Assembly (NCBI GenBank): GCA_963745135.1
Contig: CAVUWW010000013.1
Coordinates: 1 to 52,838 of the forward strand
Length of the DNA stretch: 52,838 bases
Direction of reading: 5' to 3'
Source: an uncultured bacterium
GTDB taxonomy: Bacteria; Patescibacteriota; Minisyncoccia; UBA6257; 2-01-FULL-56-20
Positions 5,550 through 41,259 of this stretch are shown one piece after another. The notes under the pieces were generated by a model that saw nothing but the letters and a program-made list of their open reading frames with translations, was not told the DNA's origin and made no database searches. Position 1 is the stretch's first letter, and every line of letters starts with the position of its first letter. The translations under genes were made by a program, and so were the position numbers.

Positions 5550-6141
5550 ACTACCGCAACAAGTCGTCGAAAAATTGAGCCGCGAGCCGATTAAGACGCC
5601 CGGATGGTCGGGCGGGGTTTTGTTCTATTCGGGCGTGCTTTTGGCCGTGGTCGTCGTCATTTACGCCGGACTTTCGTTCGTGTACGCGCCAATCCTGAAT
5701 GCGCGCATCGCGGGCGCCGAAAGCAAAATTTCCGCATTGAGCAATACGATTTCCGCGTCGGACGAGCAGCAGCTTGCCACCTATTATTCCCAGATATCGA
5801 ACCTCCGCTTGCTCATACAGAACCACATCGTCCTTTCACCGTTTTTCGCGTGGCTCGAAGGGCACACGGAAGCGAACGTCTCCTATGCCAACTTGAATTT
5901 TTCTGCGGGGAACCAGGTTGCGCTCACGGCGACCGCGCTAACGGAAGCCGACGTGAACCAGCAGGTCGCGATTTTCCAGGCGGCGCCGGAAGTGAAGATG
6001 GTGAATGTTTCCAACCTTTCGTTCGTCGCGACGAACAATATGTGGCAGTTCAGTGTGTCCCTCGTGATGCAGCCGTCAATGTTCACGTGGCAGCCGCAGG
6101 GCGGCGCGGCGACAGGATCGGCGACGTCGAGCGGGCAGTGA
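5545..6141 (+). CDS. PilN-like single-pass pilus assembly protein
   Basis: 198 aa with one N-terminal TM helix (VLFYSGVLLAVVVVIYAGL) followed by a coiled region. It sits directly after pilM. Confidence 0.55.
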   Translation: MPLPQQVVEKLSREPIKTPGWSGGVLFYSGVLLAVVVVIYAGLSFVYAPILNARIAGAESKISALSNTISASDEQQLATYYSQISNLRLLIQNHIVLSPFFAWLEGHTEANVSYANLNFSAGNQVALTATALTEADVNQQVAIFQAAPEVKMVNVSNLSFVATNNMWQFSVSLVMQPSMFTWQPQGGAATGSATSSGQ

Positions 6142-11530: not shown

Positions 11531-11534
11531 AGAA

Positions 11535-11747
11535 GGGTATGGGGGATAGGGTATAGGGTGAAGAGAAGAAAGAAGAATTTGCCCTGTGGATAACAAGAGA
11601 AGTTACGCGGTTTGACAATGATATACTTAAATAAATATCAAAAAGGTCGAGAAAGTTACTGAAAAATCAGATTAAAAAAAGAAAAGGGCTAGGAATTTTG
11701 GGCTTGGATTGAATATCTATACCCTATACCCTATACCCTATACCCTA
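11535..11747. repeat. GGGTATR / ACCCTAT inverted arrays separated by a ~155-nt A/T-rich spacer
   Basis: Left arm 11535..11560 and right arm 11717..11747, which is (ctatacc) x4. The pilin ATG at 11748 abuts the right arm. Confidence 0.75.
11612..11641 (+). promoter_or_regulatory. possible pilin promoter (TTGACA, 17-18 nt spacer, ATATCA/TATCAA)
   Basis: Perfect -35 TTGACA at 11612..11617 inside the spacer of the split hairpin. The -10 box is weak. Confidence 0.3.
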
Positions 11748-12242
11748 ATGCGAAATGGATTTACTTTGATTGAAATTCTCATCGTGGTCGCGATCATCGC
11801 CATTTTGGCGTCAGTCGTGCTCATCGGCCTTGGCCCAACCCAGCAGTCCGGCCGAGACGCGCGGCGGCTTTCCGACCTCCATGAGGTGCAGAACGCCATC
11901 GAGCTGTACTACCAGAAGTGCGGTTTCTATCCGGGCAGCGTAAGCGGTTCTGGTCCCACTGCAACTTGCGTTTCGCTTAACAGCCAAACCTATACTGGCA
12001 TGAGCGCTGCGATTTTGAGCGCCGGCATCGGCATCACGTCTCCCTTGCCGCTTGATCCGACGAACAATGCCACGTATTATTATTTCTACGGGACGAACGG
12101 CGCCACCTATATCCTCGGCGCGACGCTCGAAAACACGAATAACGCGGTGTTCAGCGGTTACCAAAACCCCCTGCCGACTTCGAACGTAACCATGCCCGGC
12201 GGGCAAAACTGCAACAGTCCTGAATATTGCATGTCATTGTAG
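11748..12242 (+). CDS. type IV pilin (prepilin with class III signal peptide)
   Basis: Start moved to MRNG/FTLIEILIVVAIIAILA, the canonical prepilin cleavage/methylation motif. Confidence 0.9.
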   Translation: MRNGFTLIEILIVVAIIAILASVVLIGLGPTQQSGRDARRLSDLHEVQNAIELYYQKCGFYPGSVSGSGPTATCVSLNSQTYTGMSAAILSAGIGITSPLPLDPTNNATYYYFYGTNGATYILGATLENTNNAVFSGYQNPLPTSNVTMPGGQNCNSPEYCMSL

Positions 12243-12410: not shown

Positions 12411-13274
12411 ATGCCTTACGTCCTGCTCTTTGCGCTTGGTCTCTGCATCGGCAGCTTTTTGAACGTTGTCGCGCTGCGCTACGACGGCGAGCATTTTGTG
12501 TTCGACCCGAAAGTGATAGGCGGAAGATCCCATTGCCCGAAATGCGATCGCACGCTCCGTTGGTTTGAGTTGATTCCGATCGTGAGTTTCATCATCCAGC
12601 GCGCCAAATGCCGCGCTTGCCAAGCGCGCATCGGTTTGCGATATCCGGCTGTCGAGCTTTTGACCAGCTTGTTGTTTGTGGCGGTTCCGTGGCGCTTGGC
12701 GCAGCTTCCAGCTTCCAGCTTCCAGCTTCCAGTCGACATTCTTTGGATTGTTGCGTTTCTTATTCTCCTTCTTATCGCCTATATCGACATCCGGCTTGGC
12801 ATCATTCCGGATGAACTTGAAATAATGCTCGGCGTTTGCGCTTTTGGTATTGTTTTGATTTCTTCCCTAGCTGCTAGCTACTCGCCCCTCGCCCCTAATT
12901 TCTCCTTTCTCGGCGCTTTCGCGCCGATTTTCGGCTTCCAGCAAAACGTCTGGACTGCACGCATCATTGGCATGATTTTCGCTTTCGCGTTCTTTGAGTT
13001 GCTCGTGCTCGTGACGCGCGGCCGCGGCATGGGCGTGGGCGACGTGAAGCTCGCCCTGCCGCTCGGATTTCTTTTCGGCTGGCCGGATATTTTGATCGCC
13101 ATCATGTCCGCTTTCGTAGTTGGCGCCGCAGTCGGGGTTGTGAGCATCGCGGTCAAGTGGAAAAAAATGGGCGGCAATCTGCCTTTTGGGCCGTTTTTGG
13201 CTGCCGGCGCGGCGTTCGTCTTCTTTTTCGGGCTGCCGGTGGCGCAGTGGTATTTTCATTTGATGGGGATGTGA
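12411..13274 (+). CDS. pilD: prepilin peptidase PilD (A24 family)
   Basis: 287 aa with N-terminal CPKC..CRAC and catalytic Asp contexts GMGVGDVKL and LPFGPFL. Confidence 0.9.
   Translation: MPYVLLFALGLCIGSFLNVVALRYDGEHFVFDPKVIGGRSHCPKCDRTLRWFELIPIVSFIIQRAKCRACQARIGLRYPAVELLTSLLFVAVPWRLAQLPASSFQLPVDILWIVAFLILLLIAYIDIRLGIIPDELEIMLGVCAFGIVLISSLAASYSPLAPNFSFLGAFAPIFGFQQNVWTARIIGMIFAFAFFELLVLVTRGRGMGVGDVKLALPLGFLFGWPDILIAIMSAFVVGAAVGVVSIAVKWKKMGGNLPFGPFLAAGAAFVFFFGLPVAQWYFHLMGM
12703..12732 (+). repeat. intragenic tandem heptamer AGCTTCC x4.3 inside pilD
   Basis: Sequence agcttcc agcttcc agcttcc agcttcc ag, encoding QLPASSFQLP in the linker between the two PilD domains. Confidence 0.9.
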
Positions 13275-15365: not shown

Positions 15366-16478
15366 TCAAATCTCCATCGTCCCATCCGCTTCCAGTTTGT
15401 ATTTTTTCTTTCTTAAAAACGCCATATATCCCGCGGCGCCGATCATGGCGGCGTTGTCGAGGTTGTATTTGAAATCGGGGACGAGAAATTGCACGCCAAT
15501 GAGTCCGGCCATGCGCTCCATGCTTTTTCGGAGTGCCTTATTCGCCGCGACGCCACCGCAGAGGATAATTGATTCCGCCGCGCATTCTTCAGCGGCTCGG
15601 CGTGTTTTCGCGACGAGCACGTCGATGGCGGCCTGTTGGAAGGAAGCGGCAACATCTGAGAGGCGGGAGGCGGGAGAAGGGAGAGGGGAGGAGAAATTCA
15701 TCTTCCGTCTTCCGTCTCCCATCTCCCTTAGGTAATAAAGAACCGCCGTCTTCAATCCCGAAAAACTAAAATCGTAATTCTTCTGGTCCAGCATCGGGCG
15801 CGGGAAAGTGATGGCGAATGGATTGCCTTTTTTCGCGAGTTTTTCGATTTCCGGCCCGCCGGGATAGGGAAGGTCGAGCAACCTCGCCACTTTATCGAAT
15901 GCCTCGCCGGCCGCGTCGTCGCGCGTCTCGCCGAGCCGCTCCCATTTCGAGAACGATTCCATGCGGAGCAAAATCGTGTGTCCGCCGGAGACGATGAGCG
16001 CGATCGCGGGGAACAGGGACGAGGGGCGAGTAGTGAGTAGGGAGGTATAACCCTTTAAGGATCTTGACGGAAGCAAGAAACTGTAAAGATGGCCTTCGAG
16101 ATGGTTCGCGCCGATGAGACGAGGGAGAGGAGAGAGGGGAGAAGGGAGAAGGGATTTCCGTATTTTTTTTGCAAATTCAATTCCTGTCCACAGTGCAGGT
16201 TCTAGCCCTGGTCCTACAGTAACTGCAATAATATCAATTTTTTTCTCCATCCCTCCTCCCTCCTCCCCTCTCAACCTCTCCCAAAGCAATGGCAAATTCT
16301 TCAAATGTTCCCGCTTTGCCAAATTCGGAACCACGCCGCCGAACGGTCGGTGGATCTTGATTTGCGAGGCGACCAGATTTTTTAAAATCTTAAAACGCGG
16401 ATTCTTCAATCCGCCGGAAGCGTCGAGCAAAGCGATGCCCGTCTCGTCGCAGCTCGTTTCGATGGAGAGGATTTTCAT
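15366..16478 (-). CDS. tsaD: tRNA N6-threonylcarbamoyladenosine synthesis protein TsaD
   Basis: 370 aa with KILSIETSCDETGIAL, VGPGLEPAL and NHLEGH. It carries low-complexity inserts encoded by purine/pyrimidine heptamer arrays. Confidence 0.9.
   Translation of the reverse strand: MKILSIETSCDETGIALLDASGGLKNPRFKILKNLVASQIKIHRPFGGVVPNLAKREHLKNLPLLWERLRGEEGGGMEKKIDIIAVTVGPGLEPALWTGIEFAKKIRKSLLPSPLSPLPRLIGANHLEGHLYSFLLPSRSLKGYTSLLTTRPSSLFPAIALIVSGGHTILLRMESFSKWERLGETRDDAAGEAFDKVARLLDLPYPGGPEIEKLAKKGNPFAITFPRPMLDQKNYDFSFSGLKTAVLYYLREMGDGRRKMNFSSPLPSPASRLSDVAASFQQAAIDVLVAKTRRAAEECAAESIILCGGVAANKALRKSMERMAGLIGVQFLVPDFKYNLDNAAMIGAAGYMAFLRKKKYKLEADGTMEI
15661..15728. repeat. intragenic inverted arrays (GGGAGAR / TCTYCCS heptamers) inside tsaD
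   Basis: Left arm aggcgggaggcgggagaagggagaggggaggag, loop aaattca, right arm tcttccgtcttccgtctcccatctccct. Translated in frame as ..GDGRRKMNFSSPLPSPAS... Confidence 0.75.
16121..16282. repeat. intragenic purine array and pyrimidine array flanking the conserved TsaD GPG core
   Basis: Purine array gagggagaggagagaggggagaagggagaaggga at 16121..16154. Pyrimidine array tctccatccctcctccctcctcccctctcaacctctccc at 16244..16282. Confidence 0.65.
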
Positions 16479-18358: not shown

Positions 18359-19414
18359 ATGCTAGGAAAAGGTTTGGAATCATTGATTCCCCAAAAAAGC
18401 GGCGGCAACGGCGACAATAACGACAGTCATGACGACGGGCAGATTTCCGTGCCGCAAGACGTGAATTCAAGTCTGGCGCCTGTGGATGAGCCGGAGGACA
18501 TGGGTCTCGGGTCTAGGGTCTCGGGTCTAGGGGAAGAGAAAAAATCAGAAACCCTAAACCCAAGACCCCAGACCCTAAACCCTAAGCCCGAACAAATTTT
18601 CGGTTCGATATTCCAGATTGAAGTTGACAAGATCTCGCCGAACCCGGACCAGCCGCGGCGGCATTTCGACGAGACGGCTTTGCACGACCTTGCGCGTTCC
18701 ATCCGCGAGTTCGGTTTTCTCCAGCCGCTCGTAGTCTCGAAAATCGAAAAGGAATCGCCGACGGGCATTGACGTCGAATACCAGCTCATCGCCGGCGAAC
18801 GGCGTTTGCTTGCGGCGAAATTGCTTGGCTTGCGGCTCGTGCCTGCCATTATCAGGAACGTCCATCTCGAGCGTGAAAAATTGGAGCTTGCCGTCATCGA
18901 GAACATCCAGCGCGAGGACTTGAATCCCATCGAGACCGCGCACGCGTTCCAGCGGCTGCAGGAAGAGTTTCGCATGACCCAGCGCGAGATTGCGGCGAAG
19001 CTCGGCAAGTCGCGGGAAGTTGTCGCGAATACCGTGCGGCTGCTCGACCTGCCGGAATATATCCAGGAGGCGGTCCAGAAAGGGGATCTGTCCGAAAGCC
19101 ATGCGCGCTTGCTGCTTTCGATCGGCGATCCGGGCGCGCAGAAAAGGTTGTTCGACGACATTTCCCTGAACCGCCTCACGACGCGCGATGTGAAGGAGCG
19201 CGTGAAGCAGATTGCAAAGCCACGCGAGCCGCGCGAAGGAGCGGAAATCTCGCCGGAGCTGAAAGCCATGCAGGAGTCATTGAGTTCAGCCCTCGGTGCG
19301 CCGGTCGAGATCCATAAAGGAGCGAACACCGGAAAGATCACGATTGTATTTTATTCGCAGGAAGAGCTGGAGAACATTTTGCAGAAATTGAAAAGCGGGG
19401 AGGGAAATCAATAA
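18359..19414 (+). CDS. parB: chromosome partitioning protein ParB/Spo0J
   Basis: 351 aa with N-terminal GKGLESLIP, ParB box ISPNPDQPRRHFDE and LIAGERRLLAAK. It carries an in-frame repeat-element insert. Confidence 0.9.
   Translation: MLGKGLESLIPQKSGGNGDNNDSHDDGQISVPQDVNSSLAPVDEPEDMGLGSRVSGLGEEKKSETLNPRPQTLNPKPEQIFGSIFQIEVDKISPNPDQPRRHFDETALHDLARSIREFGFLQPLVVSKIEKESPTGIDVEYQLIAGERRLLAAKLLGLRLVPAIIRNVHLEREKLELAVIENIQREDLNPIETAHAFQRLQEEFRMTQREIAAKLGKSREVVANTVRLLDLPEYIQEAVQKGDLSESHARLLLSIGDPGAQKRLFDDISLNRLTTRDVKERVKQIAKPREPREGAEISPELKAMQESLSSALGAPVEIHKGANTGKITIVFYSQEELENILQKLKSGEGNQ
18502..18589. repeat. GGGTCTM / ACCCTAA-type hairpin element inserted in frame inside parB
   Basis: Left arm gggtctcgggtctagggtctcgggtctagggg, loop, right arm aaaccctaaacccaagaccccagaccctaaaccctaagccc. 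Translated as GLGSRVSGLGEEKKSETLNPRPQTLNPKP. Confidence 0.85.
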
Positions 19415-19958: not shown

Positions 19959-21680
19959 CTAGATTAATCTGTAGCTCGCTTCCTTCACTCCCCTTATCGC
20001 TTTCAATTTCAAAATCAGCTTTTCGATTTTCGCCTTGTCTGTGGATTGGATCTCGATCTTGTCGAACGGGTAGCGGCTGCCTTTGGCGTTGTCGGAATGG
20101 AAGGCGAGGATGTTCATGTGGCTGCGCGCGATCGTGCTCGAGAGGTCTTTGATGAGCCCGACGCGGTCCTCGACGGCGATTTTCAGTTCACAACGGTTAG
20201 CCACCGGCCACCGGCCACCGGCCACCAGTTTTTTACGCTTTCCCGCCGCCCGAATATGGTCCTTCGCGACGCCCGTTGCGACGAATTTGAGCCAGTCGTT
20301 TGACGGTTTCTTCCCTTTTTGCGTGATGATTTCCACCATGTCGCCGGAGCGGAGCTTATGGTCGAGCGGCACGAGCGTTCCATTCGCTTTCGCGCCCACC
20401 GCCGCATCGCCGATCTCGGAATGGACGTGGTAGGCGAAGTCCACCGGCGTCGAGCCCGCCGGCAGGTCAATCACGTCGCCGTGCGGCGTGATGGCGAAGA
20501 TGCGGTCCTTGAAGAAATCGATCTTCATCGCGCGCACGAACTCGTCCGGGTCGGATGCCGCCTCGTTCCCGACATGGTCTTGCCAATTCTTCAGCTGTTG
20601 CACCCACTCAAGCTCTTTCGCAAGTTTTTTCCCGCTTATTTGATTTCCTCGCCCCTCGCTGCTTGCCCCTTGTCTCTGTTTATACAACCAATGTGCCGCG
20701 ACGCCGTACTCGTTCTCTTCGTGCATCTCCTTTGTGCGGATTTGGAACTCGATGATTTTCTCGTCCGGGCCGATGACGGTCGTGTGCAGGCTGCGGTACG
20801 CGTTCGGCTTCGGCATCGCGATGTAATCCTTGATGCGCCCGGGCAGCGGCGGCCACGCGTCGTGGATCAGGCCCAAGACGGCGTAGCATTCGGGGATGGT
20901 TTCCACGATGACGCGCATCGCGACGAGATCGTAGATTTTCCCGAGGTCCACGCCGTAGCGCAGAAGTTTCTTATATAAGCTGCTGTAGCGTTTCGCGCGG
21001 AAATCGATGGCGAGCGGGCGGATATTGTTTTTTTTGAGCAACGCTTCAACTCCTGGCTTCAATTTTTCCAAGTACGCGAGCCGCTCCCTGTATTGCTCTT
21101 TCGTCGTGTCGAGCAGCCACCGGTATTCTTTGGGGTGCAGGAACGGGAACGCAAGGTCCTGCAGTTCGCCGCTCAAATTTTGCATGCCGAGACGGTAGGC
21201 CAAGGGACCGTAGATCTCGTCGGTCTCGAGCGCAATGCGCTTCTGTTTTGCGGGCGGGAGCGCGGCGAGCGTTCGCATATTATGGAGCCGGTCGGCGAGT
21301 TTAATGAAGACGACGCGCAAGTCCTGGCTTAACGCCAAGATCATCTTTCTCATGTTTTCTGCGATATTTTCTTTCCCGCGATATTTCACGCGGCCGAGCT
21401 TCGTCATGCCGTCCACGAGGAAGGCGATCTCGTCGCCAAATTCTTTTTTCAGATCATCGAGCGAAACGCCGGTGTCCTCTACCGTGTCGTGCAGCAGCCC
21501 CGCCGCGACCGTCGCGTCATCCATGTGCCATCCGCTCAAAATTTCCGCCACAGCGGCCGGGTGGCTGAAGTACGGCTCGCCACTTATGCGCTTCTGCCCG
21601 CGGTGCGCGCGTTCGGCGAAGGCGTAGGCCTTGGCTATGATTCCCGTGGGATTTTGCCTGATGAGGTCTTTCAGGGGCAT
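19959..21680 (-). CDS. relA: bifunctional (p)ppGpp synthetase/hydrolase (RelA/SpoT homolog)
   Basis: 573 aa with an HD domain (HRGQKRISGEPYFSHP, HDTVEDT), a synthetase region, and TGS- and ACT-like C-terminal domains. Confidence 0.9.
   Translation of the reverse strand: MPLKDLIRQNPTGIIAKAYAFAERAHRGQKRISGEPYFSHPAAVAEILSGWHMDDATVAAGLLHDTVEDTGVSLDDLKKEFGDEIAFLVDGMTKLGRVKYRGKENIAENMRKMILALSQDLRVVFIKLADRLHNMRTLAALPPAKQKRIALETDEIYGPLAYRLGMQNLSGELQDLAFPFLHPKEYRWLLDTTKEQYRERLAYLEKLKPGVEALLKKNNIRPLAIDFRAKRYSSLYKKLLRYGVDLGKIYDLVAMRVIVETIPECYAVLGLIHDAWPPLPGRIKDYIAMPKPNAYRSLHTTVIGPDEKIIEFQIRTKEMHEENEYGVAAHWLYKQRQGASSEGRGNQISGKKLAKELEWVQQLKNWQDHVGNEAASDPDEFVRAMKIDFFKDRIFAITPHGDVIDLPAGSTPVDFAYHVHSEIGDAAVGAKANGTLVPLDHKLRSGDMVEIITQKGKKPSNDWLKFVATGVAKDHIRAAGKRKKLVAGGRWPVANRCELKIAVEDRVGLIKDLSSTIARSHMNILAFHSDNAKGSRYPFDKIEIQSTDKAKIEKLILKLKAIRGVKEASYRLI
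20201..20228. repeat. intragenic tandem heptamer CCACCGG x4 inside relA
   Basis: Sequence ccaccgg ccaccgg ccaccgg ccaccag, encoding LVAGGRWPVA on the gene strand. Confidence 0.9.
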
Positions 21681-24188: not shown

Positions 24189-25244
24189 ATGAAGATACAG
24201 TTTGCCGGAAATTTGGAAAAAATCGCGAGCGCCGAAAACCTGCTGGAAGCTTGGCGGGAATTCTTGCCGGGCAAGCGCGGAAAGCATGACGTGCAGGAAT
24301 TCCAACTGCGGCTGATGGATAATATTCTATCACTCCGCGCCGATTTGACAAACGGTACGTACCGCCACGGCGGGTATCAGCATTTCAAAATCGCCGACCC
24401 GAAGCCGCGCGACATCCATAAGGCAACCGTGCGCGACCGCCTCGTCCACCACGCCATTTATCGCCAGCTCTATCCATTCTTCGACAAGACGTTCATCGCC
24501 GACTCCTTTTCCTGCCGCGACGGCAAGGGGACGCATGCGGCGCTGGATCGGTTTTGCGTGTTCGCACGGAAAGCCAGCAAGAACAACACGCGCGCCTGTT
24601 GGATCCTGAAGTGCGACATCCGTAAATTCTTCGCGAACATTGACCATCAAATTTTATTGGAGATTTTGGGAACATATATTCCGGACAAAAAAATTTTGCG
24701 GTTGCTGCGGGAAATCATCGAAAGCTTTTCTTCGACCATGCCCGGCATCGGCTTGCCCCGCCCTTTTGGAGCAAAACCAAAAGAGCGGGGCTTGCCGCTC
24801 GGCAACCTCACTTCGCAATTGTTTGTGAACGTTTACATGAACGAATTTGATCAATTTGCAAAACATACATTGAAGGCAAAATACTATGTCCGCTACGCCG
24901 ACGATTTCGCCGTCTTTTCCCCGAACCGCGATTGGCTCGAAATCATCCTGCCTGAAATCCGGAATTTCCTTTTGAACCGGCTCAAGCTAAATCTACATCC
25001 CGAAAAAGTTTCAATCAGAACCATTGCCTCGGGCGAGGATTTCCTCGGCTGGGTGCATTTTCCCGACCACCGCGTTTTGCGGACGGCGACGAAGCGGCGA
25101 ATGATGAGGAGATTGGCGGACCATCCGAAAGAAGAAACGATCCAGTCTTATCGCGGGCTTTTGGGCCATGGGAATGCGCAGAAGTTGACATCGAGATTAA
25201 AAGGCTTTTGGGTTGCAAACGAAAATGCAACGGATGCCTTTTGA
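24189..25244 (+). CDS. DGR-type reverse transcriptase
   Basis: 351 aa with RT motifs including LPLGNLTSQLFVNVY ([I/L]GxxxSQ) and YVRYADDFAVF. No maturase or endonuclease domains. Confidence 0.9.
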   Translation: MKIQFAGNLEKIASAENLLEAWREFLPGKRGKHDVQEFQLRLMDNILSLRADLTNGTYRHGGYQHFKIADPKPRDIHKATVRDRLVHHAIYRQLYPFFDKTFIADSFSCRDGKGTHAALDRFCVFARKASKNNTRACWILKCDIRKFFANIDHQILLEILGTYIPDKKILRLLREIIESFSSTMPGIGLPRPFGAKPKERGLPLGNLTSQLFVNVYMNEFDQFAKHTLKAKYYVRYADDFAVFSPNRDWLEIILPEIRNFLLNRLKLNLHPEKVSIRTIASGEDFLGWVHFPDHRVLRTATKRRMMRRLADHPKEETIQSYRGLLGHGNAQKLTSRLKGFWVANENATDAF

Positions 25245-29130: not shown

Positions 29131-29204
29131 CTGTCATCCCGAACCTGCCGAGGGATCTTTCCTGCCGTGAAGAAAGGATTCTTCGCTGTCGCTCAGAATG
29201 ACGG
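29131..29204. repeat. pair of GTCATYC...GGATYC REP-like hairpins in inverted orientation
   Basis: ctgtcatcccgaacctgccgagggatc faces aaaggattcttcgctgtcgctcagaatgacgg, between convergent stops. Confidence 0.75.
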
Positions 29205-29766
29205 AAAAAACCCTTTCTAAAATTTTCCTGTCCTTTGGCGTGATTTTATTCAGCACGAAATCCCCGGCTTTTTTTCTTTTTATTTGCGCCTTGCGCCTTG
29301 CGCCTTGCGCCTTGTCCATGGGCCGCACCCCAATCCTTATCCTCTGAAAATCTTTGGTTCCCAAAAAATCGATCACCGACTGCACGCCCTTGTGTCCTGC
29401 CGAGCTTTGGCTGCGGGAGATTTTGAACTCGCCGAGCGGCAGGTCGCTGTCGTCGTGGATTACGGTCAGATCTTCCGGAACGGCATTAAATTTTTTGAGC
29501 GCTTCTTTTGTAGCGAATCCGGATTCGTTCATGAAGGCGAGAGGAACAATGAGCGACATGCGACATGCGACATGCGACATGGACGGATTCACGCAAACAT
29601 AAGAAAATAGCTTTTTATAAGTTTTCCATTTCAAATCGGCGTCATTGGCCAACGAATTTGCCAAATATCGAACCGCCAGCGCGCCCGCGTTGTGGTAGGT
29701 ATTTTCGAATTCCGCGCCAGGGTTGCCGAGGCCGAGGATGATTTTGGAGTTCGCTTTCTCCGGCAT
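29134..29766 (-). CDS. pth: peptidyl-tRNA hydrolase
   Basis: Start moved to MPEKANSKIILGLGNPGAEFENTYHNAG. The C-terminal ~25 aa are read through the REP element. Two heptamer arrays lie inside the gene. Confidence 0.85.
   Translation of the reverse strand: MPEKANSKIILGLGNPGAEFENTYHNAGALAVRYLANSLANDADLKWKTYKKLFSYVCVNPSMSHVACRMSLIVPLAFMNESGFATKEALKKFNAVPEDLTVIHDDSDLPLGEFKISRSQSSAGHKGVQSVIDFLGTKDFQRIRIGVRPMDKAQGARRKAQIKRKKAGDFVLNKITPKDRKILERVFSVILSDSEESFLHGRKDPSAGSG
29284..29311. repeat. intragenic tandem heptamer TTGCGCC x4 inside pth
   Basis: Sequence ttgcgcc x4, then ttgtcc. Confidence 0.9.
29554..29581. repeat. intragenic tandem heptamer CGACATG x4 inside pth
   Basis: Sequence cgacatg x4. 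Confidence 0.9.
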
Positions 29767-29772
29767 TTGCTT

Positions 29773-29778
29773 ATTATA
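29773..29778 (-). promoter_or_regulatory. -10 box TATAAT, 6 nt before pth ATG 29766 (leaderless candidate)
   Basis: The minus strand reads gaTATAATaagcaaATG. Confidence 0.5.
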
Positions 29779-29788
29779 TCTCGAACCG

Positions 29789-29794
29789 TATAAT
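29789..29794 (+). promoter_or_regulatory. -10 box TATAAT upstream of the lepB hairpin leader
   Basis: Sequence ccgTATAATtgtgg. The predicted start is a few nt before hairpin 29807..29929. Confidence 0.4.
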
Positions 29795-29806
29795 TGTGGT
29801 AAGTGG

Positions 29807-29929
29807 GGCATACGAATTTACGAATCGGTACGAATATACTAATAAGATTAGTAGCGGAACCATTCCAAACATTCGTGTACCCATTCTGAATTATTCGTAT
29901 ATTCGTACAAATTCGTACATTCGTATGCC
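29807..29929. repeat. GGCATACGAAT...ATTCGTATGCC hairpin element (long-loop copy)
   Basis: Same termini as 5451..5549. The lepB ATG at 29925 lies inside the terminal ATTCGTATGCC. Confidence 0.85.
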
Positions 29930-40281: not shown

Positions 40282-41259
40282 ATGCTCATAGACGACGTAG
40301 CCATCAAAATATCGGCGGGACACGGCGGCAAAGGCGCGGCGGTTTTTAATTCGACGCTCATGGCGCTGGGGCCGGCGGGCGGTTCGGGCGGGCGTGGCGG
40401 GAACGTTCTAGCGGTCGGGGTTTCTGATATCAGCGCGCTGAACCAGTTTCGTTTCAAAAAGGAATTTAACGCGGAAAATGGCCGAGACGGACGGGGACAG
40501 TTCCGCGACGGGCATGTCGGAAAAGATTTGGTGATGAAGCTGCCGGTCGGCACGGTGGTATATAAATTGGGACATGGGACAGGGGACATGGGACGGGGTA
40601 TTGAAATCACGCACGTCGGCGAAACGGTTACGCTCGCGAAAGGCGGTCTCGGCGGCAAGGGGAATTTCCAGTTCCGCTCGGCGACGAACACCTCGCCCAC
40701 GCAGTTCCAATCCGGCTTGCCGGGCGAAAGCTTCGATTTGCGGTTGGAGCTGAAGCTCATCGCGGATGTCGGCTTTGTCGGTCTGCCGAACGCCGGCAAG
40801 TCAAGCATGCTGAATATGCTTACGAACGCGTCGAGCAAGGTGGCGAACTATCCGTTCACCACGCTCGAGCCGAATTTGGGCGTCTATTATGAATTGATTC
40901 TCGCCGACATTCCGGGACTTATCGAAGGATCGTCAGCGGGCAAGGGACTTGGCGTAAAATTTCTGCGTCACGTTGAGCGTACGAAAATCCTCTTCCATTT
41001 CGTTTCCGCCGAATCATCCGATCCGGAAAAGGATTACAAAACGATCCGCCGCGAGCTTGGCGCGTATAATAAAGAGCTTCTCGAAAAAACCGAATATCTT
41101 CTCCTCTCGAAAAGCGACCTCGCGGAGAAAAAAGAATTGAAGGAGAAGCTTGAGATCCTCAAAAAATTGAACCCGACCGCAATCGCGGTTTCCGTGAACG
41201 ATCCAGAAAGCGTGAAGAAGGTGGAGAAGATATTAAATCAGATCAAGGTGGAAAAGTGA
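40282..41259 (+). CDS. obg: GTPase Obg/CgtA
   Basis: 325 aa with a Gly-rich Obg fold N-terminus (GHGGKGAA, GGSGGRGG), G1 GLPNAGKSS and G3 DIPGLIEG. Confidence 0.9.
   Translation: MLIDDVAIKISAGHGGKGAAVFNSTLMALGPAGGSGGRGGNVLAVGVSDISALNQFRFKKEFNAENGRDGRGQFRDGHVGKDLVMKLPVGTVVYKLGHGTGDMGRGIEITHVGETVTLAKGGLGGKGNFQFRSATNTSPTQFQSGLPGESFDLRLELKLIADVGFVGLPNAGKSSMLNMLTNASSKVANYPFTTLEPNLGVYYELILADIPGLIEGSSAGKGLGVKFLRHVERTKILFHFVSAESSDPEKDYKTIRRELGAYNKELLEKTEYLLLSKSDLAEKKELKEKLEILKKLNPTAIAVSVNDPESVKKVEKILNQIKVEK
40569..40596 (+). repeat. intragenic tandem heptamer GGGACAK x4 inside obg
   Basis: Sequence gggacat gggacag gggacat gggacgg, encoding LGHGTGDMGRG. It also fits a four-G-run quadruplex pattern. 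Confidence 0.9.

Follow-up and report, generated by a model that had tools for sequence, protein, structure and literature searches.

Why should a bacterial genome carry perfect or nearly perfect tandem arrays of a 7-nucleotide (nt) unit inside genes such as pilD, relA, pth and obg, and are such arrays switches of their genes or simply repeats that the encoded proteins can tolerate? The question is raised by the window studied here, i.e. the whole of contig CAVUWW010000013.1 (52,838 nt), which belongs to the genome of an uncultured patescibacterium (labeled G000; 55 contigs, 753 kb, 53% G+C); a genome of this size is typical of Patescibacteria, the candidate phyla radiation (CPR). Five arrays of about four units are found in the genes for a prepilin peptidase (PilD), a RelA/SpoT family protein, peptidyl-tRNA hydrolase (Pth, two arrays) and Obg, and it had been proposed from the sequence alone (hereafter the original prediction) that slipped-strand mispairing at these arrays turns the genes on and off. 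Here we find that the five arrays are not special to their genes, but typical of a class of heptanucleotide arrays that is spread over the whole genome; they are probably tolerated in permissive loops of the encoded proteins and do not act as switches.

All five arrays are real, and Tandem Repeats Finder, direct reading and profile searches place them where they had been reported, inside intact open reading frames (ORFs; Table 1, where coordinates are contig positions and array calls come from Tandem Repeats Finder and direct reading). The description of the relA array as four copies of CCACCGG needs a small correction, as the array is present and matches perfectly over 3.9 copies, but the fourth copy of this word carries one mismatch. 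With 27-31 nt, as measured by Tandem Repeats Finder, the arrays do have approximately the size of one arm of the intergenic hairpins. No inverted partner was found within 90 nt of any of the five, the best complementary stretch being 4-6 nt, and the sense-strand arrays with 60 nt on either side gave no significant fold (z-scores from -1.6 to +2.1); the five arrays are single arms, not hairpins. As 7 and 3 have no common factor, every array is read in all three unit frames and encodes a peptide with a 7-residue period. It is also correct that the gain or loss of one 7-nt unit in these ORFs would shift the reading frame.

Counts over the whole genome indicate how ordinary these arrays are. Period 7 accounts for 69 perfect tandem runs with three or more copies, as compared to five for period 6 and two for period 8, and chance is excluded as the source of the arrays. 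The lengths of the perfect period-7 runs are bimodal, with a decaying tail and a second mode at 28-32 nt, and therefore do not follow the geometric decay expected from stepwise growth. Tandem Repeats Finder returned 334 period-7 rows for the genome, including 270 heptamer arrays of at least three copies, 122 of which are inside heuristically called ORFs; of the 69 perfect arrays, 41 are located 30 nt or more inside an ORF. A stricter set consists of 81 arrays (at least 80% matches), 41 of them perfect, which are positioned more than 45 nt deep within 50 ORFs with a length of 150 amino acids (aa) or more. Counted by successive fifths of gene length these 81 arrays fall as 8, 22, 21, 16 and 14, without a 5′ excess, and the residues that they encode are enriched in Pro (2.4-fold), Gln (2.1-fold) and Ser (1.9-fold), as well as in Gly and Arg, and depleted in Ile, Val, Asp and Tyr. 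The hosts comprise Pth, Obg, RelA and approximately 45 more, mostly essential ones, and among them PilD alone is related to the surface; TsaD, ParB, AtpA, LepA, ArgS, ValS, IscS/NifS, MnmA, GatB, SecA, LeuS and TopA are further examples, and the tsaD and parB arrays are found in the window itself.

Table 1. Array-carrying genes of the window and their heptamer arrays, with the encoded peptides.
Feature	Position	Strand	Description and evidence	Encoded peptide
pilD, prepilin peptidase (287 aa)	12411..13274	+	Intact ORF; Pfam A24_N_bact 9-95, Peptidase_A24 113-243	
pilD array	12702..12732	+	(CAGCTTC)x4.4, 31 nt, 100% matches; Tandem Repeats Finder	QLPASSFQLP, PilD aa 98-108; peptide period QLPASSF
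tsaD, paired arrays	15660..15727	-	GAGGCGG x4.6 and CATCTCC x4.1 (words on + strand); net +11 aa	
tsaD, AGGGAGA-type array	16116..16154	-		LLPSPLSPLPR
tsaD, additional short array	16245-16267			
parB, in-frame hairpin-type pair	18502..18589	+	GGGTCTA x4.4, then AAACCCT x5.9; N-terminal linker	
relA/spoT family gene (573 aa)	19959..21680	-	Intact ORF; TIGR00691, 595 bits	
relA array	20200..20226	-	GCCACCG x3.9 (sense CGGTGGC), 27 nt, 100% matches; Tandem Repeats Finder	VAGGRWPV, RelA/SpoT aa 485-494
pth, peptidyl-tRNA hydrolase (225 aa)	29134..29811	-	Intact ORF; TIGR00447	
Second pth array	29284..29314	-	TTGCGCC x4.4 (sense AAGGCGC), 31 nt, 100% matches; Tandem Repeats Finder	KAQGARRKAQ, Pth aa 166-176
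First pth array	29553..29581	-	GCGACAT x4.1 (sense CATGTCG), 29 nt, 100% matches; Tandem Repeats Finder	SMSHVACRMS, Pth aa 77-87
obg (325 aa)	40282..41259	+	Intact ORF; profile search (NCBIfam)	
obg array	40568..40594	+	(TGGGACA)x3.9, one variant unit, 27 nt, 90% matches; Tandem Repeats Finder	LGHGTGDMGR, Obg aa 96-105

Alignments with orthologs from 5-12 related genomes support the statement that each array falls in a linker or loop. All arrays examined sit where orthologs differ in length: that of PilD occupies the linker separating the two Pfam domains, and those of Pth, Obg and RelA lie in variable-length loops, as judged from ortholog and PDB alignments. Orthologs of pilD are present in 31 of 31 relatives, and the closest one, from the congeneric genome G001, has a loop of identical length that is non-repetitive, which is half of what the original prediction itself had named as evidence against switching. 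The RelA array adds a net single codon with respect to all five orthologs compared. The loop of the first Pth array is 3 aa longer than in G001, 8 aa longer than in most orthologs and an insert of approximately three residues relative to the solved Pth structure 7wt6, and the second Pth array adds 6 aa relative to G001 and 9 aa relative to genomes G003, G010 and G017. The Obg array adds 5 aa relative to G002 (which represents another genus), G016 and G017, and corresponds to an insert of approximately 4 aa relative to the solved Thermus thermophilus Obg (1udx). When other genes are included, the net change against array-free orthologs ranges from 0 to +12 aa and is not quantized at 7 aa, so that the arrays partly replace loop sequence. 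Expansion from one native unit by three units (21 nt, 7 aa) that would stay in frame was considered and rejected, as the observed differences (0, +1, +3, +4, +5, +6, +8, +9, +11 and +12 aa) do not peak at 7 and the array lengths modulo 3 are uniform. The reading frame is preserved by the total length of the array and not by whole-unit arithmetic.

Arrays are also found at the same sites in some relatives. With an array defined by 17 or more matches out of 21 at lag 7 in a window, and with the same genes as background, G001 has an array of its own at 10 of the 35 sites orthologous to G000 arrays (background, 7 of 928 windows, or 0.75%) and G002 at 6 of 30 (background, 2 of 710). G016 and G017 have one each (1/25 and 1/32, respectively), and in G003 none of 33 orthologous sites has an array. 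The words at these shared sites are different. The PilD site of G002 contains (TATTCTC)x3.4; the RelA site has GCAAACC-type repeats in G001 and GCCAACC-type repeats in G002; and at the ValS site (GGAGAAT)x4 and (TCAAGTA)x4 are found in G001 and G002, respectively. In G002 the site of the paired tsaD arrays is taken by GACAAGG x4, and that of the AGGGAGA-type tsaD array by an ACCCTAT array encoding PYTLYP, while the parB site of G001 has a GGAGAAT array. In GatB a net insert of 24 nt is common to three genera (G000, G002 and G016) and missing in G003 and G017; it reads GCAAATG GCAAATG GCAATTG GCAATTG in G000, and three GAGAAAT units with one TAGAAAT in G002, while G016 has it in degenerate form. 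MnmA has AGGCGTC x3 followed by AGGTGTC in G000, and AGGTGTC x4 at the same place in G002. It follows from the GatB and MnmA comparisons that some arrays are old, that their length has been kept, and that a unit, once changed, passes the change on to its neighbors. At a threshold of at least 19 of 21 matches at lag 7, G000 has 11.9 arrays per 100 kb; for the relatives, whose fetched loci form a biased sample, the density is 22 in G001, 14 in G002, 3.8 in G016, 4.0 in G017 and 0 in G003.

Similarly, one and the same word recurs within G000 across unrelated genes with unrelated flanks. TCCAACC/TCCAAGC is found in the genes for RsmH, IscS, LigA, AtpA (twice), LepA, MltG, HolB, MnmA and ArgS (RsmH, LigA, MltG and HolB having been identified by eye from translations), CAGCAGC in those for ValS, GatB and TopA and in two other genes, and the obg word GGGACAT, with three arrays in the genome, in those for Obg, PpsA and one other protein. 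The pilD, relA and both pth words, four out of five, are singletons, and other units occur at 5-14 loci. These families are genome-specific: a search for three TCCAASC units matched approximately 14 loci in G000 and at most one locus each in five of 120 other genomes of the family, and CAGCAGC x3 matched five loci in G000 and none in 30 relatives. Conversely, GGAGAAT x3 gave 127 overlapping matches in G001 (dozens of loci, with arrays of up to 14 units) and none in G000, where the nearest resemblance is a degenerate GGAGAAC-type array in TypA. Some of the G001 (GGAGAAT)n arrays reach 12-14 units (C242:8905-9002, C243:24865-24948 and C309:14344-14427), and many lie in the frame of housekeeping genes and are translated into peptides of the GEWRMEN type. 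A selection filter alone was rejected as the source of recurrent words, because it would act on the relatives too and yet the families are genome-specific. As the filter for tolerable peptides would be alike in all genomes, the recurrence of words points instead to a process of copying, templating or homogenization between loci.

The explanation that we favor and regard as likely supposes a process, active in G000 and in some of its relatives, that would both generate and homogenize repeats and would make arrays of approximately four units (28-32 nt) throughout the genome. Between genes these would mostly form inverted pairs, i.e. hairpins. Within genes, selection would let an array pass only if its total length leaves the frame intact and if its translation in three frames does no harm, as with a peptide of 7-aa period that contains much Pro, Gln, Ser, Gly and Arg and is placed in a permissive surface loop or linker. 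The arrays would accordingly be translated as small floppy loop insertions or replacements and would persist for long at fixed sites, where concerted evolution would keep the units uniform without a change of length, while the dominant unit families would turn over between genomes. The gain or loss of a single unit would probably be deleterious, so that it would be purged from essential genes and become visible only as damage in dispensable ones. The comparisons show directly that the arrays exist and are in excess, that they have a preferred size, are in frame and lie in loops, that sites are shared, that unit families are genome-specific and that units change while the length is conserved; we infer that the arrays are neutral or slightly deleterious passengers, as well as the manner of their homogenization.

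Several points speak against this explanation. The perfection of the arrays and their concerted evolution imply that they are dynamic, as a switch would need. At 90% identity, PilD, RelA, Obg, TsaD and ParB each form a cluster of one among approximately 15 billion proteins. The site counts given above are descriptive and not a test, as the genomes are kin and were sampled around the array genes of G000, as were the loci used for array densities, and the G001 assembly is 9% contaminated. Outside the window, genes were called heuristically as the longest ORFs that do not overlap, and a few of these calls are probably spurious frames on the antisense strand. Finally, one gene is frameshifted exactly at an array, and removal of one unit restores it. 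This gene came to light in a noisy screen, in which every array was shortened or lengthened by one unit to see if a longer frame would appear: of the 27 arrays picked out, nearly all were intergenic hairpins or antisense frames, and only a GH130 gene (beta-1,4-mannooligosaccharide phosphorylase family; C34:3763-4972, L154:1074-2283) was convincing. Its frame is split at (CCAGCGR)x3.7 (C34:4187-4212, L154:1498-1523). Without one unit a 414-aa frame is obtained, with an unbroken Pfam match at residues 81-399 (profile 4-318 of 320) running across the array, and the loop, once repaired, is as long as that of G001; orthologs are intact in G001, G003, G010, G016 and G017. The break fits slippage as damage in a dispensable gene, and an assembly error of 1 nt would act alike. 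Unit gain and loss thus probably happens, but as a mutational hazard. Note also that atpA (C28 ~5665-5700; L163:2880-2920) has a 1-nt frameshift after ...LERAAK, with the true continuation LSKEKGGGSLTALPIIETQ in the next frame and no array at this place; in this essential gene it is likely an assembly or sequencing indel, so that frameshifts in this assembly need read support.

The same GH130 break, equivalent to a shift of one unit, is among the observations that would suit slipped-strand phase variation of pilD, relA, pth and obg through the gain or loss of single units, as are the out-of-frame unit length, the turnover implied by arrays that are kept perfect, and a single 7-nt indel that adjoins a degenerate array between duplicated segments of the assembly. 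MutS-type mismatch repair, whose loss would raise slippage, was not found in G000 or in 19 relatives of at least 90% completeness. Nevertheless, we regard such switching as most improbable. Pth, Obg, AtpA, SecA, the aminoacyl-tRNA synthetases and TopA are encoded by essential single-copy genes of a reduced genome, so that an OFF state would be lethal and cannot be a regulatory state. The arrays have 3.9-4.4 units, as compared to mostly 6-38 in documented phase-variable heptanucleotide tracts (PMC2651432); they are not enriched toward the 5′ end, with 8 of the 81 in the first fifth of the gene; and the length of orthologous arrays is conserved across genera. All 81 intragenic arrays of intact ORFs are in frame, and the sole candidate for an OFF gene, that of GH130, is accessory. 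Moreover, in an independent Logan assembly (run ERR11523654), which shows three substitutions relative to the window over 1494 nt, the obg array is identical, with the same copy number and without any indel; the exact TsaD protein, arrays included, is on record from Logan as well. The on/off switching claimed for the four genes is therefore not supported. In the duplicated segments of the assembly, which are noisy, eight of nine arrays have equal copy number, and the 7-nt indel mentioned above adjoins a degenerate array. Use of the duplicated or self-palindromic contigs as strain replicates was rejected, as their differences are mostly random 1-nt indels, which indicates assembly noise and not haplotypes. 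Contigs C52 (1-10930), C41 (3563-11913), C53 (2856-7941) and C31 (1-4955) are reverse-complement palindromes of themselves, with arms 93-99% identical, and look like fold-back or chimeric assembly artifacts rather than biology or strain variants.

Further explanations concern the origin or the maintenance of the arrays. They could be half-copies or remnants of mobile palindromic elements that were inserted in frame, similar to the Rickettsia palindromic elements (RPEs), which provide a precedent for in-frame insertion in housekeeping genes (PMC10969869), or to the arms of cassettes with a GxxExxY (PF13366) nuclease. In-frame paired arrays do exist in tsaD, parB and the genes for GltX, a RluD-like protein and others of G000, many intergenic hairpins have arms of equal size, the same units stand in unrelated genes with unrelated flanks, and unit families are amplified per genome as a mobile family would be. 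We still consider this origin unlikely for the five arrays, which have no partner arm within 90 nt and four of whose five units are singletons in the genome; in addition, a net change of 0 to +1 aa at pilD and relA does not look like insertion, and orthologous arrays change their unit in place. As for the nuclease cassette, the only PF13366 gene of G000 is degraded and flanked by ATGCGAAT-type words of 8-10 nt and not by these heptamers, and PF13366 gave no match in G001, where arrays are most abundant. The cassette was rejected as the source of the five arrays on these two grounds. The degraded gene (GxxExxY/PDDEXK_3) has an internal stop and lies between atpH and atpA (C28:4204-4696, L163:1421-1913); the match itself (C28:4284-4607) is single copy in G000, and its flanks consist of inverted ATGCGAAT and ATTCGCA word arrays with a period of 8-10. 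Selection on the arrays themselves, either as DNA or RNA elements (e.g. four phased protein-binding sites) or as adaptive new disordered loops of the sort proposed for Borg tandem repeats, would account for the uniform number of approximately four units whatever the unit sequence, a preference known also for GGGNATC and GGGGAYT in Xanthomonas and Nostoc (PMC4692102), for the persistence of arrays at fixed sites across genera, and for peptides rich in disorder-promoting residues (compare PMC9879509). It appears very unlikely, however, given that the hosts have only permissive loops in common, that G003 keeps the genes without arrays at all 33 sites examined, and that there is no structure signal at the five arrays. 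As the units are very diverse and mostly not G-rich, neither a G-quadruplex nor one sequence-specific binder can explain the arrays.

A more speculative and rather unlikely idea is that some Patescibacteria have a dedicated, sequence-templated array-writing activity that writes about four units of the active word at DNA breaks. Candidates would be 3′-end extension of a reverse-transcriptase-like or telomerase-like kind, or another enzyme with a genome-specific 7-nt template. If a break were extended at both ends, the intergenic inverted pairs would result, and if at one end, single arrays like the five described here; resection would account for the partial replacement of loops, and changes of template would explain why the dominant words at shared sites are specific to each genome. 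The only reverse transcriptase (RT; PF00078) match in G000 is the RT of a diversity-generating retroelement at positions 24408-25052 of the window. RT matches number five in G001, two each in G002 and G016, one each in G017 and G000, and none in G003; as a hint, in a small and non-independent sample of six related genomes, these counts follow the rank order of array density (G001>G002>G000>G016, G017>G003). Loss of mismatch repair was rejected as a cause and could do no more than provide a permissive setting. A search for MutS1 (TIGR01070) did not detect it in G000 or in the 19 relatives with a completeness of 90% or more, some of which are array-poor, so that its lack is a background common to these genomes and not a discriminator. 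The sole MutS1 match is a fragment at a contig end in G001, the genome with 9% contamination.

Going back to the favored explanation, i.e. arrays tolerated in permissive loops, it is useful to compare them with known systems of repeats. The closest class is that of the heptanucleotide long simple sequence repeats, which include the short tandemly repeated repetitive sequences of heterocystous cyanobacteria and repeats of Xanthomonas and Nostoc; the arrays share with it the 7-nt unit, the period-7 excess, the approximately four units and the many dispersed loci. The GGGAATC/GGGNATC and GGGGAYT repeats of Xanthomonas and Nostoc prefer four units, are G-rich and mainly intergenic, and are under-represented in genes (Rehm et al., 2015; PMC4692102), a work that also cites a 2007 survey of heptamer excess. 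Differently from these, the arrays described here use dozens of units, mostly not G-rich, and nearly half of them are in heuristic ORFs, in frame and also in essential genes. Here the four-unit preference is seen with words that lack G-richness, which removes the quadruplex explanation given for it in Xanthomonas and Nostoc and points to a mechanism shared by bacterial heptamer repeats.

RPEs (Ogata et al., 2000, as summarized in PMC10969869) are palindromic elements of approximately 150 bp that fall into ten sequence families, each with a conserved peptide. Similarly to what that summary describes for RPEs, our arrays are repeat DNA that lies in frame in unrelated housekeeping genes, is translated as fold-compatible extra segments and has been amplified in a genome-specific manner; ortholog and PDB alignments place them at structurally permissive sites of conserved genes, as is the case for RPE insertions. 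Unlike RPEs as summarized there, the five arrays are single tracts of 27-31 nt without an inverted partner, often replace the loop and change their unit in place. Contingency loci likewise have units in reading frames that are not multiples of three, so that a one-unit change shifts the frame. The phase-variable heptanucleotide tracts of Haemophilus influenzae, mostly of 6-38 units, lie in or before adhesin (hmw) and iron-receptor (TonB-dependent receptor) genes (PMC2651432). Contingency loci are long tracts in surface or restriction-modification genes or their promoters, often 5′-proximal and strain-variable, whereas the arrays here have approximately four units, are placed in the middle of essential genes and keep their length from one genus to another. 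The tandem repeats of Borgs (Schoelmerich et al., 2023; PMC9879509) are likewise perfect, rapidly homogenized, genome-specific and present at many loci, partly in ORFs without disruption, and encode disorder-prone peptides. All intragenic Borg repeats have unit lengths divisible by three, while the 7-nt unit studied here reads all three frames into a 7-residue period and has its frame kept only by the total length.

No publication on in-frame heptamer arrays in Patescibacteria was found in the open-access text searched. Beside palindromic elements and codon-multiple repeats, such arrays would constitute a third way for repeat DNA to rewrite conserved proteins, in which ultra-small bacteria have the same surface loops of their essential enzymes remodeled again and again by a 7-nt repeat read in three frames. 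Genome-specific words and length-conserved concerted evolution offer handles for finding the mechanism, and in practice heptamer arrays are hotspots of annotation and assembly frameshifts in CPR genomes.

One more array of the window may be mentioned here. A perfect (CTATACC)x4.4 array is found at positions 11717-11747, 8 nt into the longest ORF (11709-12242), and its G-rich partner is at 11534-11559, 180 nt upstream, which is unusually far for the hairpin families of the window.

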